Assembly: GCF_002994635.1 (NCBI RefSeq)
Contig: NZ_PVNL01000139.1
Span: 82,055-146,054, forward strand
Length of the DNA: 64,000 nucleotides
From: Enhygromyxa salina
GTDB taxonomy: Bacteria; Myxococcota_A; Polyangia; Nannocystales; Nannocystaceae
Direction of reading: 5' to 3'
Part shown: positions 1 through 15,629 of the stretch, one piece after another
Numbering within the stretch: the first letter of the stretch is position 1
How the letters are laid out: every line of letters starts with the position of its first letter
Notes under the pieces: model-generated
What the model was told of the DNA's origin: nothing
Database searches by the model: none
What the model saw: the letters and a program-made list of their open reading frames with translations, nothing else
Translations under genes and position numbers: made by a program

Positions 1-874
1 GCAGGCGCAGCGCGGCCGAGCGTGGAGATCGGCGCAGCTCGACCCCGGTCGGGCTCCGGTGCACGACGTTATCGATCCCGGCCATCTCGCGCTCGTCGAC
101 GCGGAGCCGCTCGAGCATCTGGCAGACCACGCGCTCGCCCTCGTTGATCACGACGCTGTCGAGAAACTCGAACCCGAGCAGCCCCTCGACGAAGCGCTGA
201 TCGAGCAGCGAGACGACCGGACCACCGAAGCACAGGTGGGCGTCGGGCAGCTGCTCGGCGAGGGCGCGGGCGATCAGCAGCGCTGGCAGCAGCTGGGCCG
301 AGAACGGGATCGAGAACCCGACCAGGCGCGGGCGCGGGTCAACCACCGCGCGCTGCAACAGCGGGCCGATGATCGCCAGCAGATCGGCCCCGACCCCGGC
401 GGCGAGGCTGGCCCGCAGCTCGGCGAGGGTCGGCGCGGCGAGGTCTCGCCCCTGATAGAGGAACACCTCGGCGAGCAGCCACTCGAAGTCGGTCTCGCGC
501 GAGCCGTCGAGCAGCGCCTGGCGGCCGTCGGCGCTGGCGAAGTAGTCACCGCGCATCGCGTCGAACACCGCCCGGCGGTAGCTGGAGCGCTGATCCTCGT
601 CGAGGCTCGCCCTGCCGCCGACGTGCTCGCCAACGTGTTCGCCGTGGTGCTCGCCAAGTCGATCAATGGTCGCGCGCGCCCGACCCCGGCGCGCGGCGAA
701 CTGCGGGCTGTCGAGATAGGCGTGCGCGGCCTCGCGGTTGAGGTCGAGGACGTCCGCCCGAAACCCGCGAGCGTTGGCGAAGGTGCTGAGGTGATGAGGC
801 GCCGGGTATGGCCAGGCCAGCGAGGTCAACGCGGGCGGCGGGAACACGAAGATCGCGTCGAGGGCTCCACTCAC
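1..874 (-). CDS. Probable B12-binding-domain radical SAM protein, N-terminal ~290 aa; continues beyond the left window edge. Not in the ORF track because it has no stop in the window
   Basis: The reverse complement, in phase with the + ORF at 59.., reads without a stop from a GTG at 874 to position 1. Stops lie just upstream at 884-889. The translation has cobalamin-binding-domain-like motifs: PRLVGFSIPFSAQLLPALLIARALAEQLPDAHLCFGGPVVS and FEFLDSVVINEGERVVCQML, which resemble the ...GGpH... and vD.vv.GEGE motifs of class B radical SAM enzymes. The + frame over 59-948 is rich in E/D/Q/R, which is typical of an antisense reading. Confidence 0.45.
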   Translation of the reverse strand, partial: MSGALDAIFVFPPPALTSLAWPYPAPHHLSTFANARGFRADVLDLNREAAHAYLDSPQFAARRGRARATIDRLGEHHGEHVGEHVGGRASLDEDQRSSYRRAVFDAMRGDYFASADGRQALLDGSRETDFEWLLAEVFLYQGRDLAAPTLAELRASLAAGVGADLLAIIGPLLQRAVVDPRPRLVGFSIPFSAQLLPALLIARALAEQLPDAHLCFGGPVVSLLDQRFVEGLLGFEFLDSVVINEGERVVCQMLERLRVDEREMAGIDNVVHRSPTGVELRRSPRSAALRL

Positions 875-948
875 ACGACCATCCTATCACGCGACAGGTC
901 CGACCTCGCGCGCCGCGTAACTCGGGACGAGGGTATAAGTGTGACAAT

Positions 949-2092
949 GCGGCGCATCGGGCTCATCATCGACACCGAGGCCGGCCACACGATCCCATTC
1001 GTGGATCTGGGGCTTCAGTTGATGGAGCACGGCCACGAGGTCGTGTTCATCGGTTTGGCGCAGAGCATCCACCTCGTGCCCCCGAGCTTGCGGTCGGCCT
1101 ACGTGTCGGTCCTCGACGGTGTCTACGAAGCCGCGACCATTCGCGCCATTCGGCAGCAGGCCCCGCTCGACTTTCCTTGCTACTGGGGCTTCGACGCCCA
1201 CCTCGAGCGTCTGCTCGACCCTGGCCTGCGCGATCAGCTGCGCGGGCTTCGGGTCGACGCACTGATCGCCAACCCCTTCCTCGGGCTCGAGACGGCGATC
1301 GCCGCCGAGCTGGTCGGGGCACCGGCGATCTTCGCGTTGCCGATGATGGGCAGCGATCCGGGGCCACTCGCAAAGATGCACCTCGAGCTGCAGCCGGCGG
1401 CCCTGCAGCGGCGGATCATCGAGCTGCTGCAGCTGACCCCCGACGAGCTCGAGGCCGCGCTCGCGCGCTGGCCAGCGTTGATCCTGTGCGCCCGCGAGTT
1501 CGAGCTGCCCGAGCTGGTCTACACCGGCGCCCACGCGCACTACGTCGGGCCGTGCCTGCGCGACTACGACGCGGCCAAGCAGCTCGCGGAGCGCGGTGAG
1601 CCCGAGACCGTGTACGTCTCGCTTGGCTCGACGCGGGTCCGCGAGACGGCGCCCGCCCGAGCGCTGCTACACGCGCTGCTCGACGAGGCCCGGGCTAGCC
1701 CTTCCACGCGGTTCTTCGTCACCGGCGCACCGCCGCCGGGCGAGCTCCCCCCCAACGTCGAGTTTCGGCAGTGGTTCGCCCAGCGCGAGCTCATGCGCAG
1801 CGTCCGGGCGACCGTCACCCACGGCGGATTGGGGGGCATCCGCGAGGCGATCGCCGGTCGCCTCGCGCCGATCGTCACCCCGTTCGTGCGCGATCAACCG
1901 GACAACGCGAGGCGCGTCGCGTATCACGGTCTCGGGCTCGATCTACACGGGCAGGTCGAGCAGCTTGGGCCCGCGCTGCGGCGGGTCCGAGCCGGGGAGT
2001 TCGACGAGCGGGTCGAGGCGCTGCGGCAGCGCTTTCGCGAGCTCGACCGCGCGCGCACAGCCGCGCGAACCCTCGACCAGCTGCTCGCCTGA
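949..2092 (+). CDS. GT1-family glycosyltransferase (UDP-glycosyltransferase / macrolide-glycosyltransferase-like)
   Basis: An internal ATG at 949 (MRRIGLIIDTEAGH...) follows an AT-richer stretch, gggtataagtgtgacaATG. The C-terminal donor-binding signature THGGLGGIREAIAGRLAPIVTPFVRDQPDNARRV matches the UGT/MGT HGG..G...E....G.P....P...DQ..NA motif. The upstream 59-948 part of the track ORF is an antisense shadow of the minus-strand gene. Confidence 0.8.
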
Positions 2093-2158
2093 GCCGAGCA
2101 CGGGTCTCACGTGTCGGCTTTGTCCCCCGCGAAACTGCCGCACGGCGCGAGCGCGAAC

Positions 2159-3481
2159 TCAATCCGATCGCACCAGGCCGTAGAGCTGGATGAACATGCG
2201 CTCGAGCAGGCGTCGATCCGCGGTCACGATCTCGGCGGTCCCGCCCATCCCGTGGCGCAGCTCGAGCGTCTGCCCATGCGTCGTACGCAGGCCATCGGGC
2301 AACTCCACGTTGACGAGGTAGACCCCCTCGCTGGCGACCGCAGAGACCGAGCCGACCCGCCCCTCGACCACACCGTGCTCGCGGTAGGGGTAGCCGTCGA
2401 GCTTGAGCAACACGCGCTGACCAACGGCGACCTTGCCGGAGTTGAGCTGAGGCATGGTCGCGCGACCGACGAGGGTCTCGGCCTCGGGCAACACGTTGAT
2501 CACCGCTTCGTCGGCGCTGACCCACTGCTGCGTGGCCCAGATCCGCGCGAGGCTGACCCGGCCCGCCGTCGGTGCGACCAGCAGATAGGCTCGACGCCAG
2601 CGCTCGTAGGCCCGGGCCAGGTTCGCGTAGCTGTCGTGGACCTCGCGGACCAGCGCGCGGCGACGGTCGCGGAGGTGAAAGCCGAGCTCGGCGCGGTTGC
2701 GACCAAAGCCAACCTGATCGATCTTACTGCGCAGGATCTCCACGTCGGCGGCCTCGAGCGCCCGCTCGCGCGCGCGCACGGTCGCCTCGGCGGCCTCGAC
2801 CTCGCGGCTCGCGACCACGCCCTCCTCCGCCAGCCGGGTCGCGGCTTTGGCCTCGCGTCGGGCCTGCTCGAGGTCCTCGACCAGGGCCCCACGCTGCCGC
2901 CGGATCCGGCCCGCGAGCGCGTCGCTGGTGTCGAGCTGATCGAGCAGCCCCGCGTCGCTGTCGTCGAAGTAGGGGTCGTCGACGAACGCGCGCAGCTCGA
3001 GCCAGGCGGACACGAGCTCGGCGTACTCGACGTCGAGCTCGCCGAGCTCGAGCGGGGCGCCGAGCGAGTGGGCGGCGGCGTCGAAGCGCTCGGGCGCCTC
3101 GAGCTGATCGGCGAGGGCCTCGAGCAGCTCGGCGACGACGCGGAGATCTTCGCTCCGCGCCGGGTTGTCGATCACCGCCAGCCACTGCCCGCGCTGGACC
3201 AGCTCGCCGTCTTCGACCCACAGCTGCGCGAGCCGCCCGCTGGTCCGCGCGACCACGGGCGCGGGCGGGGTCTGGCTCGTGACCGTGACCGGGGCCGCGA
3301 CAACGTCCGGGTACTCGAGCAACCACGCGGCGACGACCAGGGCGAGGAACACCGCGAACAGCACCGTGTTGCCCCAGCGCAGCACCGCCCCGGGGACGGT
3401 GCCGATGAAGTCCTCGAACGCGGCCCCACCGATCCGCTCGTGCGTGCGCTCCGAGGTCTCGCTCTGGCTCGCGTCCGCCAT
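2159..3481 (-). CDS. HlyD-family secretion protein (membrane fusion protein of a peptide/bacteriocin ABC exporter)
   Basis: The start is trimmed to MADASQSETSE... at 3481. There is an N-terminal TM helix, long coiled-coil-prone Ala/Glu/Arg-rich segments, and a C-terminal beta-barrel-like region, as in HlyD/CvaA. The start lies 1 nt from the PCAT stop (tgagATG), so the two are an operon. Confidence 0.8.
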   Translation of the reverse strand: MADASQSETSERTHERIGGAAFEDFIGTVPGAVLRWGNTVLFAVFLALVVAAWLLEYPDVVAAPVTVTSQTPPAPVVARTSGRLAQLWVEDGELVQRGQWLAVIDNPARSEDLRVVAELLEALADQLEAPERFDAAAHSLGAPLELGELDVEYAELVSAWLELRAFVDDPYFDDSDAGLLDQLDTSDALAGRIRRQRGALVEDLEQARREAKAATRLAEEGVVASREVEAAEATVRARERALEAADVEILRSKIDQVGFGRNRAELGFHLRDRRRALVREVHDSYANLARAYERWRRAYLLVAPTAGRVSLARIWATQQWVSADEAVINVLPEAETLVGRATMPQLNSGKVAVGQRVLLKLDGYPYREHGVVEGRVGSVSAVASEGVYLVNVELPDGLRTTHGQTLELRHGMGGTAEIVTADRRLLERMFIQLYGLVRSD

Positions 3482-3482
3482 C

Positions 3483-5681
3483 TCAGCCCCCGAGCTCGAG
3501 CTGGTTCTTGACCAGCTGGTAGTAGGTGCCCGCGAGCGCCGTGAGCTCCTCGTGAGTGCCACGCTCGACGACCTTGCCGCGGTCGAGGACGATGATCTGG
3601 TCGGCGTCGCGCACGGTGCTGAGCCGGTGGGCGATGACCAGAGAGGTCCGCCCGCGCTGAAACTCGCGCAGGCGATCCATGATCTGGCGCTCGTTGGTCG
3701 CGTCGAGGGCCGAGGTCGCCTCGTCGAAGAACAAGAACTGGGGATCGGCGTAGACCGCCCGCGCGATCAGGATCCGCTGGCGCTGGCCCTGGCTGAGCCC
3801 GACGCCGTCGCTGCCGATCCGGGTCTTCCACGCCAGCGGCAAGCTCTCGACGAACTCACGCAAGTTGGCGGTCTCGAGCGCGTCGAGCAGGCGCGGAACA
3901 TCGACCACCTCGAAGCCGACGGCGACGTTGCCGGCGATGGTGTCCGCGAAGATGTGCCCATCTTGCATGACCACGCCACACTGCCGGCGCCAAAACCCGC
4001 GATCGAGGTTGTCGAGGGCCAGTGAGCCGACCGTCAGCTGGCCCGCCTCGACGGTATAGAAACCGAGCAGTAGCTTGAGCAGCGTGGTCTTGCCGCTGCC
4101 GCTCGCGCCGACCAGCGCGGTGGTCTTGCCGGCAGGGATCTCGAGGTCGACATCGTGCAGGACCCAGCGCGAGCTGCCGGGGTAGCGAAACGACACGCCC
4201 TCGGCCACCAGCGAGCGCGCGCTGCCGAGCTCGCGCAGCGCCGGGCGATCTGCCGGCTGCTCCTCAGGGAACTCGTGGATCTCGTCGAGGCGATCGATGC
4301 TGAACTTGGCGTCCTGGGCCGCGGACACGAAGGCCAGCGTGCGCTCGAGCGGGCGGGCGACCTGGCCGACGACCCACGACAGCGCGAGCATCATGCCGAG
4401 GGTCATCTCGCCAGCGATGACCTCGCGCGCGGCGATGAAGGTGATGACGATGTTCTTGGCCTCGTTGATCGCCATGCTGCCTGCGCTCTGCACCTGCTCG
4501 AGCGCGAGCCGGCGCTTGTTGACGCGAAACAGGCGGACCTGGATCTTCTCCCAGTCCCAGCGCTTGCGTCGCTCGCAGTCGTTGAGCTTGAGCTCGGAGA
4601 TGCCCTCGACGAGCTCGACGAGCGCGTTTTGACTGGCGGTGCGGTGCTCGAAGTGCTCTTGATCGAGGCGCTGGCGCCGGCCCATCAGCGCGACGATCCA
4701 ACCGGTCGCGAGCGCGGTCCCAATCAGGAACACCGCGAGCACCGTCGGGCTGTAGATCGCGATCACGACCGAGAGCACCGCGACGTTGACGAACGAAAAC
4801 AGGATCTCGAGCGGACCCGCGGTCAGGAAGGTCTCGACGCGATCGTGATCGGCGACCCGCTGGAGCACGTCGCCGAGCGTGCGGGTGTCGAAGAAGCTCA
4901 TCGGCAGCCGCAGCAGCTGGGCGAGGAAGCCGGTCAGCATCGCAATGAACACACGCTGGCCGACGTGGAGCAGGATCCACGCGCGGATCATCTCGATCGC
5001 GGTGCGCCCGGCGAACAACATCAGCTGGGCGAGGAGCACGGCGTAGACGAAGCCGATGTCACGGGTCCCGATGCCGACGTCGACCAGGGCTTGAGTCAAG
5101 AAGGGGAACACCAGCCCGAGCAAGCTGGCGACGCTCATCCCGAGCATCAGCTGAACGATCAGCCGACGGTAGGGGCGAAAGTAGGGCCAGCGCGACGCGA
5201 ACCCGCGGGTCGCGTGCTGCTCGCCCTCGTGGGTGAAGAACGCGGGCGTCGGCTCGAGCACCAGCGCGACGCCCTGGCCCTCGTCGGCGGTCCAGCGGCG
5301 CAACACCTCCTCGCGCGAGAGGATCACCAGGCCAGCGGCCGGGTCGGCCACGCGGACGCGACGCTCGTCGGCCGCGACCACGACCACGAAGTGGTTTTGA
5401 TTCCAGTGGATGATGCACGGCAGCGGCAGCGCGCTCGCGAGCTGATCGTAGTTGGCCATGACCGCGAGGCTGCGCAGGCCGATCGACTCGGCGGCCGCGG
5501 CGACACCGTCGAGCGAGACCCCGTCTCGGGCGATGTCACAGCGCTCGCGCAGGGTCCCCAGCGACCAGTCGCTGCCGTGGTGCCGAGCGATCATCCGCAG
5601 GCAAGTCGGCCCACAGTCCATCGCGTCGTGCTGACGCATGGCGCGAAACGAGGAGCGGAAGCTTGGCGCGCGGTCGACCAT
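3483..5681 (-). CDS. Peptidase-C39-domain ABC transporter (PCAT; bacteriocin/RiPP double-glycine leader processing exporter)
   Basis: The N-terminal C39 domain has the catalytic Cys (MDCGPTCLRMIARHHG) and His (IIHWNQNHFVVVV). Six TM helices follow. The C-terminal ABC ATPase has GASGSGKTT (Walker A), LSQGQRQR (signature) and ILFFDEATSALD (Walker B). Confidence 0.9.
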   Translation of the reverse strand: MVDRAPSFRSSFRAMRQHDAMDCGPTCLRMIARHHGSDWSLGTLRERCDIARDGVSLDGVAAAAESIGLRSLAVMANYDQLASALPLPCIIHWNQNHFVVVVAADERRVRVADPAAGLVILSREEVLRRWTADEGQGVALVLEPTPAFFTHEGEQHATRGFASRWPYFRPYRRLIVQLMLGMSVASLLGLVFPFLTQALVDVGIGTRDIGFVYAVLLAQLMLFAGRTAIEMIRAWILLHVGQRVFIAMLTGFLAQLLRLPMSFFDTRTLGDVLQRVADHDRVETFLTAGPLEILFSFVNVAVLSVVIAIYSPTVLAVFLIGTALATGWIVALMGRRQRLDQEHFEHRTASQNALVELVEGISELKLNDCERRKRWDWEKIQVRLFRVNKRRLALEQVQSAGSMAINEAKNIVITFIAAREVIAGEMTLGMMLALSWVVGQVARPLERTLAFVSAAQDAKFSIDRLDEIHEFPEEQPADRPALRELGSARSLVAEGVSFRYPGSSRWVLHDVDLEIPAGKTTALVGASGSGKTTLLKLLLGFYTVEAGQLTVGSLALDNLDRGFWRRQCGVVMQDGHIFADTIAGNVAVGFEVVDVPRLLDALETANLREFVESLPLAWKTRIGSDGVGLSQGQRQRILIARAVYADPQFLFFDEATSALDATNERQIMDRLREFQRGRTSLVIAHRLSTVRDADQIIVLDRGKVVERGTHEELTALAGTYYQLVKNQLELGG

Positions 5682-5974
5682 CGTGAGCTCGCCCGACGAG
5701 ACGCGCCGCTCGGCGACGGCCGAACCTCCGGCCTCGCAGCCGTGGCCCAGATGCTAGCGAGATCAGACACCGCGTGTCCCCCCTTCGCCGCGCCCATCTC
5801 GGCTCCGGAGGTTGGTGCCGCCCAGGACCGCAGGGCCAGCCTCGCGCATCCGTCGCGCCACCCCGGTCGCGCGGCTTGGTCCTCAGATAGGCTCGGGCGC
5901 CGCTGAACACTGGCCCAGGGCCAGGTGAGCCAGAAGCCTCGGCGGGCTCGCCAGCCCTCGACTGCACCGAGCTA

Positions 5975-6238
5975 GTGGAGCTCGGTCCGCTCAACCCCGT
6001 CGACGCACACAGCGGCGCCTTCGTGGGCATCGACGTCCGCGACCACGAAGACTCCGACGCCCTCATCTCGGCCTACGAGGAAGGCAAGCAGGCGACCTCG
6101 AACGTAGACACCGGTTCGGACGAGGCAATGAAAGTGGACGTCGAGGTGGAGCGAGGAGTCGGCGCGCTGAATGAAGGTCAGCGCGCCGAACTGAGCGTCC
6201 TCGACCGGAGGCTGCCGGGGAGCGCGAACTACTCGTAG
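5975..6238 (+). CDS. Candidate small acidic protein (87 aa from a GTG; 36 aa from the internal ATG MKVDVEVERG...); coding status uncertain
   Basis: This is the only sizeable ORF in the 547-bp PCAT upstream intergenic region. It has high GC3 in the first two thirds, no Cys and no GG motif. The opposite strand in the same phase is also open, so the call is weak. Confidence 0.2.
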   Translation: MELGPLNPVDAHSGAFVGIDVRDHEDSDALISAYEEGKQATSNVDTGSDEAMKVDVEVERGVGALNEGQRAELSVLDRRLPGSANYS

Positions 6239-7209
6239 ACCACGGCGCCGGTGTTGCTGGTGTCAAACCTGAGCTTGTATCCGCAATTCCCAGATACGTA
6301 GGGGTCCCAGCCCCCGCTCGAATCGCTGGGGTCGGTCGACAGGCACCAGCCGTTCCCCCCGTCCTGTCCCCAGGTCTTGATCTTGTCGTAGTGGTCGGCC
6401 TCGCTGTACTCCCACAGCGTGACGTAGTCGATGAACATGGCGTCGCTTCCGTTGGTCTCGACGTAGATCCGGTCGGGCTGCTTCTCGCTCGAGAACTCCC
6501 AGGACGTGCCGTACTCGCACCACCTGGCGTAGTCGACGACCCGCTCGCCGAGCTTCGTCGAGCCGTCATACAGCGACACGGTGACGTCGTTGGAGGTCCC
6601 CTCGTTCTCGATCGTGCTCCGCCCACAGTCGAGCTTGACGGTATAGACCCACTCGAGCGGCGACGTGATATAGGCGTTTTCGTTGTCGACATCGAACCGG
6701 AACGCCTCTTGGCAGCCGGCGTTCGGATCGAGGTAGTTCGACCAACCGCTGGCGTCATTGGCGTCAGTCGAGAGGCACCAGCCATCGCCGCCGGTGACCC
6801 CATACTTGGAGATGGTGTTGCCCGTGCAAAACGAGCCGGAACAAGTATAGTACAGCTCGAGCCAGTCGAGGAACAGCGCGTCGTCGGAGTGGGTCTGAAT
6901 GATCACGTCGGTGATCCAGGCCTCGTCCCCCCAACTGTCGAAGGACCAGGCAAGCGAGCTGGGGTCATCGTCGTCGATGCAGTCGTGTGCCTCGAGGGTC
7001 ATGCTCGTCGATTGATAGAGGTAGTTCCCCGCCCACAGCGTGACATGAAAGGGGTCTTGCGATGCGCGCTCCGTCGAATTTCCGGGCCCGTTCATACAAC
7101 TGAGCTTGAGCATATTCGGACCGTCCCCGGTCTCGGCGAGCGCTGGCTTGGGCATGAAGACTCCCGCGATGAGGGTGGCGATGGTGAAAGCGAGCTTGGC
7201 TGAACGCAT
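6229..7209 (-). CDS. Secreted protein with two tandem ~150-aa Cys-containing domains (unknown function)
   Basis: The start is trimmed to MRSAKLAFTIATLIAGVFMPKPALA (a Sec signal peptide). There are two internal repeats, each ending GxGWCLSTDxxDxSGW...(G/N)CG..(F/L)RFD. The composition is Trp/Tyr/Asn/Ser-rich, unlike the neighbouring genes. Confidence 0.65.
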   Translation of the reverse strand: MRSAKLAFTIATLIAGVFMPKPALAETGDGPNMLKLSCMNGPGNSTERASQDPFHVTLWAGNYLYQSTSMTLEAHDCIDDDDPSSLAWSFDSWGDEAWITDVIIQTHSDDALFLDWLELYYTCSGSFCTGNTISKYGVTGGDGWCLSTDANDASGWSNYLDPNAGCQEAFRFDVDNENAYITSPLEWVYTVKLDCGRSTIENEGTSNDVTVSLYDGSTKLGERVVDYARWCEYGTSWEFSSEKQPDRIYVETNGSDAMFIDYVTLWEYSEADHYDKIKTWGQDGGNGWCLSTDPSDSSGGWDPYVSGNCGYKLRFDTSNTGAVVYE

Positions 7210-7613
7210 GCCGATCCCTTCAGCAAGATGGGTGCCGTCGTAAAGTCGCTTGTCTGGTCGGCGCGCCGCTTCTCGAGCGACTGTCGGGGACCGTCGCAAT
7301 CGTCAGCGACCGACGGCGACGGTTCGGCATGGCTCGAGACCGAGCGCCCGTGAGTGGGCCCGGGAGCTCGCGCAGTCGTGCAGCTCCTCGACGCTCGACC
7401 GGCACGGCACCGGACCGCCAGCTGCCCGGACCAAGAACTCGGTGGCGCGATGTTCACACCCCGCCGACCCTGGGTTGGATGTCTTAGCCGCTCGAGTGCC
7501 AAGGTCGGCGCTCGCGCATCGCACTCGACTGCACGTGTCGTGTGGACTTGGCTTCTCGCCACAGCGTCGGCTGCCAGCGTCGAGATGAGCCTATCATCTC
7601 CAGGTTGACGGTC

Positions 7614-9008
7614 TCACCGCGGGAGACTTTGGTCAGCCCCCATCGGAAGGATTGGCAAGCGAACCACAAAGCACGCACCCAAGCTCGATCCGCGCTCCAG
7701 CTCCAAGCTACCGCCGTGGTGGATGGCGATCTCGCGGGCAATGGTGAGACCGATACCAGTCCCCGGACGCCCGCTCGCCCGCTCGCTCGCGCCGCGATAG
7801 AACGGCTGAAAGATCTGCTCGGCGTCGCGCTCGAGGACCCCGACGCCGCGATCACGCACCAGCAACATCGCGGTAGGGCTCGGGCTCGCGTCGCAGGGCC
7901 GTCCTTCGAGATCCACGCGGCTACCCGGCGGCGCGTGGCCGATCGCGTTCTCGAGCAGGTTGCGGATCAACCGAACCAGATCCATGGGGTCGGCGCGGAC
8001 GGCCATCGGCTCGACGCGGATCACCACGTCGACCTGGTGGCGCTCGGCTTCAGCGGCGAGCATCGCCGCGGCCTCGTGGCTGACCTGGGCGAGATCGACG
8101 ACCGTGGACGGCAGCGCGGGCACCCGACCGATCCGGGCCAGGGCGAGCAGCTCGTCAGTGAGGGCCTTGAGCCGCCGGGTCGCGTCGAGCGCCTCCTCGA
8201 TCGAGCGTCGATACTCCTGGGCGTCACGCGAGCGGCGGAGCGCGTGGGAGAGCTCGCCGTAGAGGGCCGTCAGCGGTGAGCGCAGCTCGTGGGCGGCGTG
8301 GGCGATGAAGTCACTGCGGGCGCGCAGCAGCGTGGCGAGGCGCTCGATCATCGCGTCGACGTCGCCTGCGAGCTGGACGATCTCGGGCGCGGCCCGGACC
8401 TTGCCCACGCGCGCGTCGAGGTCGTGGGCCCAGATCCGGCGTGCAACTCGGGCGATGCGATCGTGGACCCGAGTGAGGCGCCGAACGACGTCGGAGGTGA
8501 GCAGGATCGTGGCCAAGAACGCGATCCCGAACACCAGGCCCATGACCCGCGCGAGGTACAGCGAGTCACGATCGAGGTCGCTGCGGGGCGCGGCCAGAAG
8601 CAAGACGACGCCAGCGTGACCCGGGATCTCGATGACCAGGCCGCGCAGGTGCTCACCTTGGAATTCAAAGTCGCCGAGCGGACGCCCGAGCTCGCGGACG
8701 GCGGGCGGCGGACCCTGCCAGGACACCGTGGCGTCGAGCACGGTGCCGTCTTCGGCGTAGAGCGCGGCGTACTTGGTCAACGGCCCGACGTCATCGGGGC
8801 TCGGGCCGAGCCGCGGTGAGATCCGCAGCCGGTCGGCCCCCGAGTGGGCGATCTCGGCTGACTCTTCCCGGGCCTCACGGCCGAGGGCCTCGTCAAACTG
8901 GCGCTGCTGGCTGGCGTCGACCAGCAGGTTCACGCTGGTGAACGCGGCCGCCAGCGTGATCAGGTTGACCGCCGAGATGGCGCCGACGAAACGGGCGCGA
9001 AAGCTCAT
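7614..9008 (-). CDS. Sensor histidine kinase (2 TM, HAMP, HisKA, HATPase_c)
   Basis: The start is at MSFRARFVGAISAVNLI, overlapping the response-regulator stop as ATGA. The H-box is AHAAHELRSPLT. The ATPase has N/G-box motifs (LIRNLLENAIGHA, GTGIGLTIAREI). The upstream part of the 742-aa track ORF lies out of frame over the response regulator. Confidence 0.8.
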   Translation of the reverse strand: MSFRARFVGAISAVNLITLAAAFTSVNLLVDASQQRQFDEALGREAREESAEIAHSGADRLRISPRLGPSPDDVGPLTKYAALYAEDGTVLDATVSWQGPPPAVRELGRPLGDFEFQGEHLRGLVIEIPGHAGVVLLLAAPRSDLDRDSLYLARVMGLVFGIAFLATILLTSDVVRRLTRVHDRIARVARRIWAHDLDARVGKVRAAPEIVQLAGDVDAMIERLATLLRARSDFIAHAAHELRSPLTALYGELSHALRRSRDAQEYRRSIEEALDATRRLKALTDELLALARIGRVPALPSTVVDLAQVSHEAAAMLAAEAERHQVDVVIRVEPMAVRADPMDLVRLIRNLLENAIGHAPPGSRVDLEGRPCDASPSPTAMLLVRDRGVGVLERDAEQIFQPFYRGASERASGRPGTGIGLTIAREIAIHHGGSLELERGSSLGACFVVRLPILPMGADQSLPR

Positions 9009-9673
9009 GGCTCGGCCTCCCCGCGGAGCCGGTAGCCCTTGGCCCGCACGGTCTCGATCAGGCTGGCGTGGACGCCAAGCTTGTCGCGCAGCCGGCTGAT
9101 GTGGACGGCGACGAGGTTGGACTCGGGATCGAAATTCATGCCCCACACGCGCGAGAGCAGCTCGGAGCGGGTCACGACCTGATCGGCCCGCTGGACCAGG
9201 TAGAGCAGCAGGGTCATCTCGCGCTCGGTCAGGTGGAGCGGCCGCCCGGCGACCAGGACCCGGCGCTCGAGTCGATCGACGTCGAGCGGGCCGAGGCGTA
9301 CCCGGCCCTGCTGGATCGTGCGCCGGAGCACGGCCTCGAGCCGAGCGAGGAACTCGTCGATCTCGAACGGCTTGACCAGGTAGTCGTCGGCACCCGAGCG
9401 CAGGCCCAAGACCCGCTCGTTGAGCTCGCCCCGGGCGGTCAAGATCAGGATGGGGATCATGCAGCCTTGCTCGCGGAGCCGGCGGCACACGCTGACACCG
9501 TCGATATCGGGCAGCATCCAGTCGAGGACCATCGCGTCGTAGACCCCGCTCGACGCTCGAGTGATGGCCTCGAGCCCCTGGGCACAGGTGTCGGCGACAT
9601 AGCCCTCCTCGATCAGCACACGGGCGATGAAGCGGGCCAGCTTGGCGTCGTCCTCGACGACCAATACCTTCAC
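9005..9673 (-). CDS. OmpR-family response regulator (receiver + winged-helix)
   Basis: MKVLVVEDD...DAMVLDWMLPDIDG (the phospho-acceptor Asp) and a C-terminal trans_reg_C domain (LTEREMTLLLYLVQRADQVVTRSELL...GYRL). Confidence 0.9.
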   Translation of the reverse strand: MKVLVVEDDAKLARFIARVLIEEGYVADTCAQGLEAITRASSGVYDAMVLDWMLPDIDGVSVCRRLREQGCMIPILILTARGELNERVLGLRSGADDYLVKPFEIDEFLARLEAVLRRTIQQGRVRLGPLDVDRLERRVLVAGRPLHLTEREMTLLLYLVQRADQVVTRSELLSRVWGMNFDPESNLVAVHISRLRDKLGVHASLIETVRAKGYRLRGEAEP

Positions 9674-10064
9674 TCAGAACCTCCGAGCATTGGTAGACCC
9701 TACCTTTCTCCAACAGAAAAATGTGGGATGCCGGTAGGGCCCCCCGTTCAAACCGTGCGTGCGATTTTCCCGCACACGGCTTACCAGTGGCCTCTCCGAG
9801 ACGGGACTCGAACCCGCTGGAGCGGTGCAGCGTGAACGACAAACTCGCCTGGCTTTCGCCAGCCGCGCTCCCCGTTCGTCAGGACGCACCATCGCGGGAG
9901 GCTAGCACGATCTTCGAACTGCCTATCTACGAACCCGATCCTATCGGCGAACATTACGAACATGTAATCCAGACTTAATCTCGATTCGATCTGGCTTGCC
10001 GCATGGTTGCGCCGTGCCGCTGATTGCTCGATCTTGGAGGCCCCGCCGGCGCCCGCGCGAGCGC

Positions 10065-11390
10065 GTGGGCCAGGTAGTGGCGCTGGTCGCAGGTCTCGCA
10101 TGCGTGAGCCTGCTGCAGCCCGAGACCGCCGCCGCGCTCGCCGTGCCGCAGGAGCGCGATGGCGGCCAGGTGTTCCGTCCCAGCGCCGAGCTCGGGCTCG
10201 AGGACCTGCAGGAAATCGTCGGCGAGGGACTGGCCGATCTCGAGGCCGCAGCGCTGCGCGTTGACCTCGCTCGCGCCGACGTCCGACAGAGTCGGCTGCT
10301 GCCCAATCCGATCCTCGATCTCGAGTATGGAACGATCCCATTTGGGACCACCAATCCAGCGGATCTCGACCGCCCCTTTGCCAACATTCCCAATTACGGG
10401 GTTGGAGTCGCCTATCCGATCGAGCTGGGTAAGCGGCGTCCGCGGATCCAGCGGGATCGCGCGCTCGAGCGGGGTGCCCGAGCGGAGCTGGACGCGGTCA
10501 CTCGGAGCCAAGCGCTCGAGCTGGCGGCCACGCTCGGCGAGCTGGCGACGGCGATCCTCCGGCTCGAGGGCTTTGAAGAGATGGTCGCCGACAGCGAGCG
10601 CTCGGTCGCGGCCGCCGAGGTCCGCGTCGCGACCAGCTTCGGTGTGCCGCTCGACGTGGATCGGCTCCGCGTCGAGCTCACGCGCACCGAGCAGCTGGTG
10701 CTCACGGCCCGCAGCGACATCAGCCGCGCGCTGGCCGACTGCGCGACCCGAGTCGGCCGCGCGTGCGAGCGCTTCGTCGACAGCAGCGCGGCGCGAGCCT
10801 ACCTCGAGGCATGGATCGCCGCGGACCCAGGCGAGGTTGCGATCGAGGAGCGCCCCGATCTTCGGGCCCTGTCCGAGTACGGCGAGGCGGCCAGCGCCAG
10901 CGAGCGGCTCGCTCGGGCCCAGCGGATCCCCGATCCGACCTTGCGCGTTGGCTACACCCACGACCGGTTCTGGGTGTCGGGCAACCAGATGAACTCGTTC
11001 ACGATCTCGCTGAGCTTCGCGCTGCCGACCTTCGATCGGGGTCAGGCGCAGCGCCAGGCCGCCGAGGCCCAGACGCACCGACTCGGGGCCGAGCGCAGCA
11101 AGCGAGTCGCGGCTACCCAGGCGCAGCTCCCCGACCTCGCCCGCCAAGTCGAGCTCGAGCGCGATCGTCAGGTGCTCCTGCGCGACGACGCGATCCCGGC
11201 CGCGAAGCGAATCGCCAGCGCGATTGAGGACGCGGCCGAGAGCCGCCTGACGACCATCACCGAGGTCGTCCAAGCCCGTCGAACGCTGCGCGAGCTGCTG
11301 CTCGCCGAAGCCGAGGCCTACGCGGCCGCCTATGAGGCCCGCCTCGAGCTCCTGCGCGTGCTCGCCCCTCCGAATGAGACCAAGCCATGA
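10065..11390 (+). CDS. czcC: Outer membrane efflux protein (CzcC/TolC-like OMF of a heavy-metal RND system)
   Basis: The start is trimmed to the GTG at 10065, VGQVVALVAGLACVSLL (signal-like). The body has TolC-like coiled-coil repeats. The end is ATGA-coupled to the next gene. Confidence 0.7.
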   Translation: MGQVVALVAGLACVSLLQPETAAALAVPQERDGGQVFRPSAELGLEDLQEIVGEGLADLEAAALRVDLARADVRQSRLLPNPILDLEYGTIPFGTTNPADLDRPFANIPNYGVGVAYPIELGKRRPRIQRDRALERGARAELDAVTRSQALELAATLGELATAILRLEGFEEMVADSERSVAAAEVRVATSFGVPLDVDRLRVELTRTEQLVLTARSDISRALADCATRVGRACERFVDSSAARAYLEAWIAADPGEVAIEERPDLRALSEYGEAASASERLARAQRIPDPTLRVGYTHDRFWVSGNQMNSFTISLSFALPTFDRGQAQRQAAEAQTHRLGAERSKRVAATQAQLPDLARQVELERDRQVLLRDDAIPAAKRIASAIEDAAESRLTTITEVVQARRTLRELLLAEAEAYAAAYEARLELLRVLAPPNETKP

Positions 11391-12499
11391 TTCGCTCGAC
11401 CTTCCCAGCCGTTTTGATCCCGCTCCTGTTCACGCTCGCCTGCGCCGAGGCCGAGGGCCAGCCGCCCCGACACTGGGCGGTCGACGACGGCCGCGTGTCC
11501 CTCGGCCAGTCGACCCCGGCCCGGTTCGAGCTCGCCGAAGTGACGACCGGCGAGCCGCTCCCCGCTCCCAAGGTCACGGGCCGGGTCCAGGCGGTGGAGC
11601 TGCTGACCTCGCCCAGCTATCCGCCGCTGGCCGGTCGAGTCGAGGCGACACGTGTGCGGATCGGCGACCAGGTCGCCGAGGGCGATCCGCTGGTCCAGGT
11701 CCGGACCACGGATCTGCCCGCGCTCGAGGGTGAGCTGGCGAGCGCCCGACTCCAAGTTCAGACCAAGGCGGCGACGGTCGAGAAGCTCGAGCGCATGGTC
11801 GAGGCCAAGCTGACGGCCGAGCACGACCTGATCATCGCGCGCGCGGAGCTCGATGAGGCCCGCCTGAGCGCGCGCACGGCCAGGGCCCAGCTGCGCTCGC
11901 TGTCGGTGGCTCGCTCGGGCGACTCGAGCTTCTGGATCCTCGCCCAGCGCAGCGGCACGGTCGTCCAGCTCGACGCGACCCTGGGTCAGCAGGTCGGGCC
12001 CTCGCAAGCGCTCCCCGTCGCGACGATCGCCGATCTCGACGAGGTCCTGGTGATCGCCGACGTCCCCCAGCGAGAGGCCGCGCGCCTGCAGGTCGGGGCT
12101 CAGGCGTGGGTGACCACGCCGGGCTCGATCCACGCGCCGGTCGCTGGCGAGGTCGAGCTGGTCTCGGCGCTCGTCGACCCCGATCGCCAGACCGTCCCGG
12201 TTCGGGTGCGGGTCGCCAATAACGAGCGAGCGCTCCGCCCCAACGCCTACGTCGACGTCGCGTTCACGGCCGTCGACCAGGATCCGGTCGTGCGAGTGCC
12301 GGCCGGCGCGGTCGTCCGCGACGGGCCGCAGACGATCGTGTTCGTCGATGTCGGGACCCGCAGCTTCGAGATCCGGAAGGTCGAGGTCGGGCGGCGCTCA
12401 AAGAATGAGGTCGAGGTCATCCGGGGACTCGCGAGCGGCGAGAACATCGTGACGACCAACGCACTGCTGCTGCTCAACGCTGTCGACCTGGACGCCTGA
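11387..12499 (+). CDS. czcB: RND efflux membrane fusion protein (CzcB/CusB family)
   Basis: A lipoprotein-like N-terminus (LLFTLACAEA) is followed by biotinyl-lipoyl-like and beta-barrel MFP segments. It lies between czcC and czcA with overlapping or adjacent stops. Confidence 0.8.
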   Translation: MIRSTFPAVLIPLLFTLACAEAEGQPPRHWAVDDGRVSLGQSTPARFELAEVTTGEPLPAPKVTGRVQAVELLTSPSYPPLAGRVEATRVRIGDQVAEGDPLVQVRTTDLPALEGELASARLQVQTKAATVEKLERMVEAKLTAEHDLIIARAELDEARLSARTARAQLRSLSVARSGDSSFWILAQRSGTVVQLDATLGQQVGPSQALPVATIADLDEVLVIADVPQREAARLQVGAQAWVTTPGSIHAPVAGEVELVSALVDPDRQTVPVRVRVANNERALRPNAYVDVAFTAVDQDPVVRVPAGAVVRDGPQTIVFVDVGTRSFEIRKVEVGRRSKNEVEVIRGLASGENIVTTNALLLLNAVDLDA

Positions 12500-12500
12500 C

Positions 12501-15500
12501 ATGCTCGACGCACTCGTCCAGTCGTCGCTTCGCCACCGCTTCGCGGTGATCCTCGCTGCTGTCTTGATGCTGGCCTGGGGCGCGCACGCGTTCTCCGAGC
12601 TGCGGATCGAGGCGTTCCCCGACCCCACCGACACCCAGGTCAACATCATCACGCTCAGCACTGGCCAGCCCGCCGAGGAGATGGAGCGACAGGTGTCGAT
12701 CCCGATCGAGCGGGCGGTCAACGGCACGCCAGGGCTCGCGCGGGTCCGCTCGATCAACCTGTTCGGGCTCTCGTTCGTGACCTTGACGTTCGGCGATGGG
12801 GTCGAGCCATTGTTTGCTCGGGCCCAGGTGCTCGAGCGGATCCGAACCGTCGACCTGCCCGAGGGCGTGACCCCGGAGCTCGGCTCGCTCAGCACCCCGA
12901 TCGGCGAGATCTACCGCTACACCCTGCGCGGGCCGCAGACCGACCCCATGGAGCTGCGGACCTTGCAGGAGTGGGTGGTCGCGCCGCGGTTGTCACGGGT
13001 CGCCGGGATCGCGGACGTGGTCAGCTACGGCGGGCTGTTGCGCGAGATCCAGATTCGCCCCGATCCCGTGGCGCTCGCGGCCAAGCAGCTGACCCTCGCG
13101 GAGCTCGAGGCCGCGCTCTCGCACGCGTCGATCAACGCGTCCGGCGGCATCATCGAGGAGGGCGTCGAGCAGCTGGTGATCCGCAGCCGAGGTCTGTTCG
13201 AGGACCTCGACGACATCGCCTCGGTCGCGGTCGCGACCCGGGCTGGCACGCCGATCCGACTCGACGAGGTCGCCTCGGTCCAGGAGGGCTGGGCGCCGCG
13301 TCAGGGCATCGTCGGCCGAGAGGACCAGTTCGACGTGGTCGAGGGCATCGTGTTGATGCGCCGCGGTGAGAACCCGAGCCAGGTGCTCGACGCCCTGCGA
13401 GCCGAGATCGAGCTGATCAACGGGCAGGTCCTGCCCGACGGCGTCGAGATCTCGACCTTTTACGATCGGACCGAGCTGGTCGACACGACCCTGGCGACGG
13501 TCGGGCGCAACCTCGCCGAGGGCGCGCTGCTTGTCGTGTTCATCCTCGCGGTGTTCCTGCTCGACCTTCGCGCCGCGCTGATCGTCGCGGTCGTGATCCC
13601 GCTGTCGCTGGCGTTCGCGTTCGCGTACCTGCACATGCGAGGCATGGCCGCGAACCTGATCTCGATGGGCGCGGTCGACTTCGGGATCATCGTCGACGGG
13701 GCCGTGGTGATCGTCGAGGCGATCGCCGTGCGGATGGCTGCGGACGGCTCCGCCAGCGAGGCCGCGCTCTCGGTCAGCGATCGGATTGAAAAGGTCTTGA
13801 AGGAGGTGGTCCGGCCGACCGTGTTCGCGCTGCTGATCATCATCGCCGCGTACCTGCCGATCTTCTTGTTGCAGCGGGTCGAGGGCCGGATCTTCGCGCC
13901 CCTGGCCCACACCGTGGTCGCGGCCCTGGTCGGCGCGCTGGTGTTCTCGATCACCCTGGTCCCAGTGCTCGCAACCTTTGCCTACCGCAAGCCACGCAAG
14001 CACCGAGAGTCGCCGATCCTGACCCTCGCCCAGGCCATCTACATGCCGAGCTTGAAGGCCGCGCTGCGCCGACCTGCGCTGGTGATCGCGGTCGCGGTTG
14101 GCTCGCTGATCGGCTCGGCTCAGCTGCTCTCGCAGCGCGGCACCGAGTTCTTGCCCGAGCTCAACGAGGGCGCCCTCTACCTGACCTTCACGCTGCCCTC
14201 GAACGTCTCGCTGACCGAGGCCCGCCGGCTCGCGCCAACCCTGGCCAAGATCGTCGATCAGTTCCCGGAGGTCGAGACTCACCTGCATCAGATCGGGCGG
14301 CCGGAAGACGGCACCGACGCCACGCTCTCCAACAACCTGGAGTTCTTCGTCAAGCTGCGGCCGGCCGCCGAGTGGCCCGACGACACCCCCGACCTCGCCG
14401 CGCTGGTGGCCAAGATGGGCGCGTCGTTCGACACGATCCCCGGCCTGGAGATCAATTTTTCCCAGCCGATCCGCGACAACGTCAACGAGAACATCTCGGG
14501 TCAGTTCGGTCAGGTCGCCCTGAAGATCTACGCCGACGATCTCGAGACCCTGCAGAGCGTCGCCGAGGCGACCAAGCTGGCCCTCGCCGACGTCCCCGGG
14601 ATCGCCGACCTCGGCATCGTCAAGAGCGGCGAGGTTCCGCAGATCCAGATCGCGCCGCGCCGCGAGTGGCTCGGTCGCCATGGGCTGACCATGGATGACG
14701 TCCAGAGCTATCTGGCCGTCGCCCTCGGCGGCCAGGCGGTCGGCGAGCTGTGGGAGGGCGAGCGCGTGTTTGCGGTGGTCCTGCGCCTGCCGGACGCCTC
14801 GCGCGAGACCGTCGAGGCGATCTCGGCCCTGCGGATCCCGACGGCCTCGGGCGCCCTCGTGCCGCTGAGCTCGGTCGCCGAGGTCGGCGTCGACTATGGC
14901 CGGGCGTCGATCAACCGCGAGAACGGCCAGCGCTACATCGGCATCCGCATGAACGTGCGCGGGCGCGACCTCGGCAGCTTCGTTCGAGACGCTCGCGCGG
15001 TGGTCGAGGCCGAGGTCGAGACCCCAGCGGGGGTGACCATGCAGTGGGGGGGCGAGTTCGAGTCGAAGGAGCGGGCGATGAAGCGGCTCCTGCTCGTGGT
15101 CCCGGTCGCGCTGGTGCTGACCCTCGCCCTGCTGTTCAAGGCCTTCGACTCGCTCCCGATGGCCTTGCTCGTGCTCTTGACCGTTCCCTTCGCGCTGGTC
15201 GGCGCCGCGCTCGGGCTGTGGATGTTCGACATGCCGGTCTCGATCGCGGCGGCGGTCGGCTTCATCGCGCTGGTCGGGCAGACCTCGCTCAACGGGGTCT
15301 TGGTGCTCAGCGCGGTCGAGGCACGGCGCCGGGCCGGGCTCGGGCTCGACCAGGCGATCTTGCGAGGGGCTCGGGACCGGTTGCGACCGGTGTTGATGAC
15401 CGCCGGGCTCGCGGCGTTTGGGTTGATCCCGGCTGCGCTGTCGCAGTCGATGGGCGCCGAGACCCAACGACCGATCGCGGTGGTGATCGTGGGCGGCACC

Positions 15501-15629
15501 ATCTCTGCGGCCCTGCTCACCTTGCTGGTGCTGCCGGTCATGTATCGCGCAATGATGCGGGCACATGGCCACCTGAGGTGGCGCCGCGAGCCGAGCGACA
15601 CCGATAGCTCGGGCGACGGGGCGTCCTAG
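12501..15629 (+). CDS. czcA: Heavy-metal efflux RND transporter (CzcA/CusA, HME family)
   Basis: The protein is 1042 aa, with 12 TM helices and two large periplasmic loops. The N-terminus MLDALVQSSLRHRFAVILAAVLMLAWG... is conserved as in CzcA/CusA. Confidence 0.9.
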   Translation: MLDALVQSSLRHRFAVILAAVLMLAWGAHAFSELRIEAFPDPTDTQVNIITLSTGQPAEEMERQVSIPIERAVNGTPGLARVRSINLFGLSFVTLTFGDGVEPLFARAQVLERIRTVDLPEGVTPELGSLSTPIGEIYRYTLRGPQTDPMELRTLQEWVVAPRLSRVAGIADVVSYGGLLREIQIRPDPVALAAKQLTLAELEAALSHASINASGGIIEEGVEQLVIRSRGLFEDLDDIASVAVATRAGTPIRLDEVASVQEGWAPRQGIVGREDQFDVVEGIVLMRRGENPSQVLDALRAEIELINGQVLPDGVEISTFYDRTELVDTTLATVGRNLAEGALLVVFILAVFLLDLRAALIVAVVIPLSLAFAFAYLHMRGMAANLISMGAVDFGIIVDGAVVIVEAIAVRMAADGSASEAALSVSDRIEKVLKEVVRPTVFALLIIIAAYLPIFLLQRVEGRIFAPLAHTVVAALVGALVFSITLVPVLATFAYRKPRKHRESPILTLAQAIYMPSLKAALRRPALVIAVAVGSLIGSAQLLSQRGTEFLPELNEGALYLTFTLPSNVSLTEARRLAPTLAKIVDQFPEVETHLHQIGRPEDGTDATLSNNLEFFVKLRPAAEWPDDTPDLAALVAKMGASFDTIPGLEINFSQPIRDNVNENISGQFGQVALKIYADDLETLQSVAEATKLALADVPGIADLGIVKSGEVPQIQIAPRREWLGRHGLTMDDVQSYLAVALGGQAVGELWEGERVFAVVLRLPDASRETVEAISALRIPTASGALVPLSSVAEVGVDYGRASINRENGQRYIGIRMNVRGRDLGSFVRDARAVVEAEVETPAGVTMQWGGEFESKERAMKRLLLVVPVALVLTLALLFKAFDSLPMALLVLLTVPFALVGAALGLWMFDMPVSIAAAVGFIALVGQTSLNGVLVLSAVEARRRAGLGLDQAILRGARDRLRPVLMTAGLAAFGLIPAALSQSMGAETQRPIAVVIVGGTISAALLTLLVLPVMYRAMMRAHGHLRWRREPSDTDSSGDGAS

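Follow-up and report, generated by a model that had tools for sequence, protein, structure and literature searches.

A peptidase-containing ABC transporter of Enhygromyxa salina as the probable export end of a TOMM/LAP-type peptide cluster

The left end of a 64-kb stretch of Enhygromyxa salina DNA (contig NZ_PVNL01000139.1, positions 82,055 to 146,054; in the following the window, with a GC content of ~70%) carries genes for a peptidase-containing ATP-binding cassette (ABC) transporter (PCAT), a HlyD-family adaptor, a family 1 glycosyltransferase (GT1; the protein is termed GT below) and, cut by the window edge, a cobalamin (B12)-binding radical S-adenosylmethionine (rSAM) protein. We find that positions 1-5933 probably represent the right-hand export and tailoring end of a ~20-kb cluster for a ribosomally made, post-translationally modified peptide (RiPP) of the thiazole/oxazole-modified microcin (TOMM) or linear azol(in)e-containing peptide (LAP) type, with PCAT exporting the core of a 51-residue precursor and GT and B12-rSAM tailoring it. 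Unless stated otherwise, coordinates refer to the window, and L001 denotes the orthologous locus of E. salina DSM 15201.

The orthologous locus of DSM 15201 contains a TOMM/LAP gene set

L001 was found by one genome scan. As determined by blastn, its nucleotides 4957-10910 correspond to window positions 5933-1 at 95.1% nucleotide identity, with no alignment beyond. The genes of L001 follow each other in the order PCAT, HlyD, GT, B12-rSAM, small rSAM, DUF6817, JmjC, JmjC, precursor, DUF6445, SagB and fused E1-like/YcaO (Table 1). The defining elements of a TOMM/LAP cluster, a YcaO cyclodehydratase with an E1-like leader-binding domain and a SagB dehydrogenase, are both found in L001, outside the segment covered by the window.

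The proteins common to both strains are closely similar, with amino-acid identities of 98% for PCAT, 98% for HlyD and 95% for GT. The ratio of non-synonymous to synonymous substitution rates (dN/dS) was 0.09 for PCAT, 0.11 for HlyD, 0.30 for GT and 0.24 for the N-terminal part of B12-rSAM, at dS values of ~0.09-0.11. Because these ratios lie between 0.09 and 0.30, all four window genes are taken to be kept by purifying selection. The similarity between the strains ends at position 5933, ~250 bp upstream of PCAT, and we therefore place the border of the cluster there. Beyond it the flanks differ, with an aldehyde dehydrogenase gene in DSM 15201 and a small open reading frame (ORF), a secreted protein, a two-component system and an operon for an outer-membrane efflux protein (OEP), a membrane-fusion protein (MFP) and a resistance-nodulation-division (RND) pump in the window.

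A double-glycine precursor is encoded on the contig of the window

The precursor of DSM 15201, KIG19157.1, consists of a double-glycine leader (MTNDNKPKRKLNIKDLEIRELDRETMEKLKGG) and a 19-residue core (KVEAGWSRSGNHGSVGVDR), with hydrophobic residues at leader positions -4, -7, -12 and -15. In the window's own strain the precursor is PRP94814.1, a peptide of 51 residues encoded on the same 200,418-bp contig as the window. Its 32-residue double-glycine leader (MTDENKPKRKLNIKDLEIRELDRETTEKIKGG, ending in IRELDRETTEKIKGG) is followed by the 19-residue core KVEAGWSRSGNHGSVGVDR, giving the predicted cleavage site KIKGG/K. The cores of both precursors are identical (19 of 19 residues), all four substitutions being located in the leader. 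Ser7, Ser9 and Ser14 are the only three Ser residues of the core, which contains no Cys. The SagB protein of the window strain, PRP94812.1, is encoded on the same contig as PRP94814.1 and the B12-rSAM protein PRP94819.1, and the spacing of the three accessions (94819, 94814, 94812) equals the spacing of the corresponding genes in L001. Judged from this order, the precursor gene would lie five genes beyond the left edge of the window and ~11 kb from PCAT. A candidate double-glycine substrate in the same locus as PCAT is provided, outside the window, by PRP94814.1 and the DSM 15201 locus.

An initial annotation of the window had suggested a locus for the export of a modified peptide that continues to the left, had seen no double-glycine leader nearby and had considered that the substrate gene might lie left of position 1. 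All three points are supported; the YcaO/SagB type of the cluster and its JmjC and DUF6445 oxygenases could not be recognised from the window. The collinear block of DSM 15201 includes SagB, YcaO and the precursor, and precursor and SagB of the window strain are located on the window's contig. A search of all 64 kb in six frames with a regular expression for double-glycine leaders gave a single match at 44179, at the C-terminal end of an ORF of 308 aa which by eye only resembles an ATP-synthase gamma subunit, and this match was rejected as a leader. Likewise, tblastn with three precursors, the true one included, found none in the window. As evidence against its reading, the annotation had named a PCAT/HlyD pair conserved in an unrelated context in other genomes, with the cognate bacteriocin encoded elsewhere; in the second strain, the pair is contiguous with the same tailoring genes and with a double-glycine peptide.

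A further suggestion, that the acidic 87-aa ORF at 5975-6238 might be the substrate of PCAT, did not survive. The ORF lies 294 bp from the PCAT start, divergent to it, and shows coding-like GC values at its codon positions. However, it is located outside the block common with DSM 15201, where a 98%-identical PCAT has another neighbour, and it has no homologues in the family and PDB libraries searched. Upon inspection of the sequence, no plausible cleavage site was seen, nor a Gly-Gly pair preceded by hydrophobic residues at -4, -7 and -12, and the leader search did not pick it up, so that this alternative is effectively refuted. The ORF is strain-specific and situated just beyond the conserved cluster block.

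Table 1 Features of the window and of the orthologous locus L001 of E. salina DSM 15201 (aa, amino acids; GC1/2/3, GC content at codon positions 1, 2 and 3; TRF, Tandem Repeats Finder; FMN, flavin mononucleotide). Scores are given against the cut-off of the respective model.
Sequence	Feature	Position	Strand	Size	Remarks
Window	B12-binding rSAM gene, 5' part	874-1	-	291 codons	GTG at 874-872; off window edge at position 1
Window	12-bp tandem repeat in rSAM gene	616-657	-	x3.5	TRF; encodes GEHHGEHVGEHVGG inside His-rich insertion
Window	Intergenic region, rSAM/GT	875-946		72 bp	Divergent; 62/69 identical to DSM 15201
Window	GT1-family (UDPGT/MGT-like, GT-B) glycosyltransferase	947-2092	+	381 aa	ATG at 947-949
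Window	HlyD-family type-I-secretion membrane-fusion (periplasmic adaptor) protein	2159-3481	-	440 aa	PF13437, TIGR01843
Window	PCAT	3483-5681	-	732 aa	C39 14-143, transmembrane 184-439, nucleotide-binding 508-657
Window	PCAT upstream region common to both strains	5682-5933			231/252 identical; right end is block border
Window	Acidic ORF	5975-6238	+	87 aa	GC1/2/3 0.73/0.41/0.84, coding-like; no Pfam, NCBIfam or PDB match
Window	Orphan secreted repeat protein	6229-7299	-	356-aa ORF	Likely start Met31; Sec-type signal MRSAKLAFTIATLIAGVFMPKPALA
L001	GT		opposite strand
L001	B12-rSAM			704 aa
L001	Small radical-SAM protein			283 aa
L001	DUF6817 protein		opposite strand	588 aa	Faint TOMM leader-binding signal
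L001	JmjC/cupin_8 proteins				Two
L001	Precursor ORF	17022-17177			GAGGG ribosome-binding site; GC 0.60 vs ~0.70 genome
L001	DUF6445 protein				Between precursor and SagB
L001	SagB-family peptide dehydrogenase (FMN)				TIGR03605 131.6 bits vs 78.4
L001	Fused E1-like/YcaO	19392-20908			Runs off locus; TIGR03882 45.7 vs 36.9; PF02624 29.8 vs 25.7

PCAT has an intact C39 active site and is coupled to HlyD

All three domains of PCAT scored above the Pfam gathering scores, with 109.5 bits for Peptidase_C39 (PF03412; cut-off 22), 99.8 bits for ABC_membrane and 97 bits for ABC_tran, and full-length matches were obtained to PCAT1 (4ry2, E=4e-98) and ComA (8hf7, E=2.6e-94). When the N-terminal 153 residues were aligned to LahT150 (6mpz), PCAT1 and the ComA protease domain, Gln17, Cys23, His97 and Asp113 fell into the catalytic columns. 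The column of Cys23 is marked as catalytic by the PCAT1 Cys-to-Ala variant 7n87, which differs from wild type exactly there. Because the catalytic residues are in place, the C39 domain is of the active type, unlike the degenerate C39-like domain of HlyB. The alignments also contain the Walker A motif GASGSGKTT, the signature motif LSQGQRQR and the Walker B motif FFDEATSALD. PCAT remained under the cut-offs of the curated NCBIfam exporter models (TIGR03796 NHLM_micro_ABC1, 438 vs 853.3; TIGR01193 bacteriocin_ABC, 370.5 vs 523.85) and, from its sequence, is best described as a divergent member, assignable at the domain level only.

The adaptor matches PF13437 HlyD_3 with 55.3 bits (cut-off 22.2) and TIGR01843 type_I_hlyD over positions 61-454 of the 467-aa ORF, at E=7.1e-34 and 117.5 bits, below the cut-off of 208.65. 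On the minus strand, the PCAT-HlyD junction reads GGC-TGA-G-ATG-GCG, the PCAT stop codon at 3485-3483 and the HlyD ATG at 3481 being separated by one spacer base. The two genes are tightly coupled without overlap, and this arrangement predicts translational coupling.

GT and B12-rSAM are divergent members of their families

GT matches PF00201 UDPGT with 45.2 bits (cut-off 19.5). Its C-terminal nucleotide-sugar motif THGGLGGIREAIAGRLAPIVTPFVRDQPDNARRV (THGG...E...P...DQ..NA) aligns to OleI, and domain and motif together place the protein in GT1; a GH(T)xP motif is found at the N-terminus. Against TIGR01426 MGT it reached 73.3 bits (E=1.9e-20) and thereby stays outside the MGT subfamily (cut-off 260); the scores for the OleI, Mgt and Rgt models were likewise far under their cut-offs. 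Among proteins of solved structure, GT is best matched by OleI (2iya, E=2e-15), Kcn28, EspG2 and CalG2.

The left-edge fragment is identical over 291 of 291 residues to residues 1-291 of PRP94819.1/WP_106094409.1, which was found by a database search with the orthologue. This 692-aa protein carries PF04055 and PF02310 in its precomputed annotations and is recorded as 'B12-binding domain-containing radical SAM protein [Enhygromyxa salina]'; its radical-SAM half is encoded beyond the left edge of the window. The Pfam B12-binding match was sub-threshold (cut-off 32.1) both for the fragment (27.9 bits) and for the DSM 15201 orthologue (26.4 bits), while Radical_SAM was above threshold in the latter (33.8 bits vs 29.5). 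Judged by its domains, the gene product is a bona fide B12-binding radical-SAM protein of class B.

Several features of this enzyme are atypical. Its Cys motif at residues 318-326, CYWGKCTFC, has the spacing Cx4Cx2C in place of the canonical Cx3Cx2C, and the sole PDB sequence match of the whole protein is the Cys-motif segment of queuine lyase 6p78 (CIWGKCSFCDYI). The B12-binding domain is split by an insertion of ~110-130 aa, the Pfam match beginning at residue 175, which corresponds to profile position 45. The insertion harbours a repeat-length polymorphism, the DSM 15201 allele being 12 codons longer (GERLGERLGEHHGEHHGEQVGEHVGG). When 1.84 billion representatives were searched exhaustively with HMMER, 148 relatives were obtained at E<=1e-30, none with more than 37% identity. 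The best curated match is TIGR03975, a model for RiPP radical-SAM C-methyltransferases, which was the top model for the left-edge fragment (E=1.5e-8, below the cut-off) and reached 61.8 bits for B12-rSAM, short of the 281.85 bits needed for membership. The small-molecule methylases PhpK and HpnR are also among the nearest curated models.

The gene content of positions 1-6238 thus agrees with the initial annotation. Its four genes were recovered with essentially the same coordinates, as supported by the domain scores and the complete match to PRP94819.1; the active-site Cys and His it had reported for PCAT align as Cys23 and His97; and the coupling of PCAT to HlyD is borne out by the TGA-G-ATG junction. 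The start of GT is shifted from 949, the last base of the start codon, to 947. For the left-edge gene, where a lack of any B12 or radical-SAM homology would have spoken against the prediction, the full-length protein possesses both PF02310 and PF04055.

The 72-bp gap between the divergent rSAM and GT genes presumably contains a bidirectional promoter. The lone sigma-70-like match there is unconvincing; it spans 941-969, across the GT start codon. An Rfam scan found no riboswitch near the locus.

Proposed biosynthesis and export

In the proposed pathway, the leader would guide the maturation enzymes to the precursor. The fused E1-like/YcaO cyclodehydratase and the SagB dehydrogenase would convert Ser residues into oxazol(in)es, and the two JmjC proteins together with one DUF6445 oxygenase would hydroxylate the peptide, on which the small radical-SAM enzyme may also act. 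B12-rSAM would most likely C-methylate an unactivated carbon of the peptide, and GT would most likely add a hexose to Ser or to a hydroxylated side chain. The C39 domain of PCAT is predicted to bind the amphipathic leader and to cut after the Gly-Gly pair (Gly32), whereupon the ABC domains would pump out the core. As in the colicin V system CvaAB-TolC, the co-translated HlyD adaptor may then form the link to a TolC-type outer-membrane channel encoded elsewhere.

It is conceivable, and we offer it as a tentative proposal, that the product is a structurally new RiPP, a 19-residue azole peptide that is multiply hydroxylated, C-methylated by the atypical B12-rSAM (Cx4Cx2C motif, split B12 domain, no relative above 37% identity) and O-glycosylated by a GT1 enzyme.

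A related precursor occurs in Haliangium

The closest SagB outside Enhygromyxa, 48% identical, is encoded on a Haliangium sp. contig (L014), where it adjoins the gene for a 53-aa precursor with leader MNENQSSKQPKKRIKIKEIEIKELDPSEIEHAKGG and core LEYEWRRAQSGQTSSVVR. Four JmjC genes are located on the same contig, together with a gene for DUF6445 (49% identity) and one for a SagD-type E1/YcaO fusion of 767 aa; the YcaO proteins of L001 and Haliangium are 39% identical. Between the two precursors, the leader, the KGG site and the Glu, Trp, Arg, Val and C-terminal Arg residues of the core are conserved, as is one Ser/Thr position of the core, and the Haliangium leader is hydrophobic at -7 as in DSM 15201. 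A search among 5.8 billion sequences yielded only two protein clusters of the precursor family, the Enhygromyxa cluster having two members. So far, the family appears limited to two lineages of marine or halophilic myxobacteria.

Directly upstream of the Haliangium precursor, L014 5269-6264 encodes an APH/homoserine-kinase-like protein, which may act as a kinase on the peptide or serve in resistance; in the Enhygromyxa locus, no such gene was seen.

Evidence against the assignment and alternative readings

A number of observations weigh against assigning positions 1-5933 to the peptide cluster. The leader of the window strain is hydrophobic at -4, -12 and -15 and carries a Thr, not a hydrophobic residue, at -7. 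For the left ~15 kb of the cluster, the gene order in the window's strain rests on the order of protein accessions and on DSM 15201. Scans for promoters and terminators and folding of the GT/HlyD gap gave nothing above shuffled controls. No specific NCBIfam model reaches its curated cut-off with PCAT, HlyD, GT or B12-rSAM. In Haliangium, no PCAT, HlyD, GT1 or B12-rSAM gene was found within 10 kb either side of the L014 cluster, and because these genes are absent there, PCAT/HlyD/GT1/B12-rSAM appear to be an Enhygromyxa-specific addition that is not core to the peptide family. Finally, the nearest relatives of GT are glycosyltransferases of small molecules (macrolides, enediynes), and no RiPP genes were visible around the B12-rSAM relatives of loci L013, L016, L017 and L018 (29-37% identity).

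The Haliangium result bears on the possibility that PCAT and HlyD export a bacteriocin independently and are simply neighbours of the RiPP cluster, the true substrate being an unlinked double-glycine peptide. With a double-glycine precursor in Haliangium and no PCAT nearby, a clustered PCAT would be dispensable to the family; in addition, PCAT falls short of the curated models for exporters of nitrile hydratase-leader peptides (NHLP) and of bacteriocins, and no substrate lies beside PCAT itself. Yet a canonical double-glycine peptide is located ~11 kb from PCAT in the same collinear block of two strains, the block ends 250 bp upstream of PCAT and so includes it, and no other double-glycine leader is found in the 64 kb. 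We consider an independent exporter clearly improbable.

The roles of GT and B12-rSAM are the weakest links of the proposed pathway; both have small-molecule enzymes as their closest named relatives. The pair might act on a small molecule, for example by xenobiotic inactivation of the MGT type or by methylation of a sugar or lipid, leaving only PCAT and HlyD to serve the RiPP. GT best matches the macrolide and enediyne enzymes OleI/OleD, MGT and CalG, PhpK and HpnR are among the closest curated models for the rSAM protein, and the 29-37% identical B12-rSAM relatives are encoded beside short-chain dehydrogenase/reductase, U32-peptidase or cytochrome genes, one of them, in L016, again next to a GT1-like gene. 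On the other hand, RiPP genes flank the pair on both sides within the collinear block of the two strains, the top curated rSAM match is the RiPP C-methyltransferase model TIGR03975, and all matches of GT and B12-rSAM to named subfamilies are far under the cut-offs. The GT1-like gene of L016 shows no detectable BLAST similarity to the window GT (E=0.38), so that the pairing may be due to chance. A purely small-molecule role of the pair is unlikely, and we favour the tailoring of the peptide.

The closest B12-rSAM relative outside Enhygromyxa, 37% identical over the full length, is encoded at L016 703-4040 (JGI metagenome contig Ga0373623_0024403) and adjoins the GT1-like gene, which has a weak EryCIII-like_C match and is followed by the U32 peptidase gene. 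The repeated pairing of rSAM and GT1 may reflect coincidence or a distant functional link. The more distant loci L002-L012 (Bacteroidota, Ignavibacteriota, spirochaetes) have the rSAM gene alone in common with the cluster, contain no other cluster gene and are therefore uninformative.

Comparison with known systems

With PCAT1 of Clostridium thermocellum, ComA, LahT and CvaB/CvaA-TolC, the Enhygromyxa transporter has in common the C39, transmembrane and nucleotide-binding domains and the Gln/Cys/His/Asp set. As in PCAT systems with a HlyD-type adaptor, the adaptor gene is coupled and a putative cognate double-glycine peptide is encoded in the cluster. In contrast to these systems, the transporter does not reach the cut-offs of TIGR03796, TIGR01193 and TIGR01846, its putative substrate gene is ~11 kb away instead of adjacent, and no outer-membrane partner is linked.

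The cluster resembles the TOMM/LAP clusters of microcin B17, streptolysin S and plantazolicin in its E1-like/YcaO protein, SagB-family dehydrogenase and leader-bearing precursor, in the Ser residues of the core, and in the predicted use of a C39 ABC transporter to remove the leader and export the peptide. PCAT-equipped NHLP/Nif11 TOMM clusters were reportedly described by Haft et al. in 2010; compared to these, the Enhygromyxa leader is short (32 aa) and class-II-bacteriocin-like. Beyond the typical LAP gene set, the cluster holds two JmjC genes, DUF6445, B12-rSAM, the small rSAM, DUF6817 and GT1.

Classical RiPP glycosyltransferases, of the glycocin SunS/GccA type, belong to GT2 and not to GT1. 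If GT acts on the ribosomal peptide, it would represent a rarely used class of glycosyltransferase. With OleI/OleD/MGT and CalG1-4 it shares the UDPGT domain and the C-terminal nucleotide-sugar motif, but only its C-terminal half aligns significantly, and its context is peptide rather than polyketide biosynthesis. B12-dependent rSAM C-methyltransferases of RiPPs include PoyB/PoyC (polytheonamides) and BotRMT1-3 (bottromycin). The Enhygromyxa enzyme has the same combination of B12-binding and radical-SAM domains and, as in bottromycin, co-occurs with YcaO, whereas it differs by its score far below TIGR03975, by the Cx4Cx2C spacing and by the split B12 domain with its variable repeat.

A precedent for the JmjC proteins is CzlI of the curacozole pathway, a JmjC-family Fe/2OG peptide hydroxylase encoded in a YcaO cluster (PMC11575548). 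Azole RiPPs of the curacozole/YM-216391 type likewise come from a YcaO-based cluster in which a JmjC gene adjoins that of the precursor; in contrast to the Enhygromyxa system, curacozole is a cyanobactin-like Streptomyces macrocycle made without PCAT, GT1 or B12-rSAM, from an unrelated precursor (PMC11575548).

The full-text literature contained no description of this cluster or precursor family that we could find, and the paper on the E. salina genome gives no more than a count of 'bacteriocin' clusters. The system is known in kind, as a TOMM/LAP-type RiPP cluster with PCAT export, and its enzyme combination and precursor family, both uncharacterised, have a very narrow distribution. It adds one more uncharacterised RiPP cluster without a new biological principle and is a moderate genome-mining target that would not surprise specialists. 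With PRP94814.1, the apparent puzzle of an exporter without a substrate can be regarded as resolved. Compact and fully delimited at ~20 kb, and combining a core of 19 residues with as many as nine modifying enzymes, the cluster offers a tractable target for heterologous expression from a marine myxobacterium that has been little exploited. Should GT1 and the atypical B12-rSAM both act on the peptide, they would provide new enzymology of peptide O-glycosylation and C-methylation for RiPP engineering. The comparison of Enhygromyxa with Haliangium would further illustrate how export and tailoring modules are added onto a conserved YcaO/SagB/JmjC core, the four window genes being, if this holds, an Enhygromyxa-specific add-on grafted onto an older core.

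Genes beyond the cluster border

To the right of the acidic ORF, the secreted protein of ORF 6229-7299 contains two internal repeats, each ending in GWCLSTDxxDxSG.W...C...FRFD, and has no Pfam, NCBIfam or PDB match. It was rejected as a PCAT substrate in view of its Sec-type signal peptide, its absence at this position in DSM 15201 and the lack of a family match.

A group II intron match in Rfam (RF00029, domain V/VI model) at 9728-9784 on the minus strand reached 49.8 bits (gathering score 40). The match falls within the long, spurious-looking ORF 7614-9842, a short distance upstream of the gene for the response regulator (9005-9673). It may be an intron remnant; no intron-encoded protein was obvious nearby.

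Positions 7614-15629 encode a two-component system (HisKA/HATPase kinase and OmpR-type regulator) followed by OEP, a CusB-like MFP and a 1042-aa ORF taken as the RND pump from its size and position only. This operon looks like a metal or drug efflux system unrelated to PCAT, and its OEP gene is the only gene for an outer-membrane channel near PCAT/HlyD.

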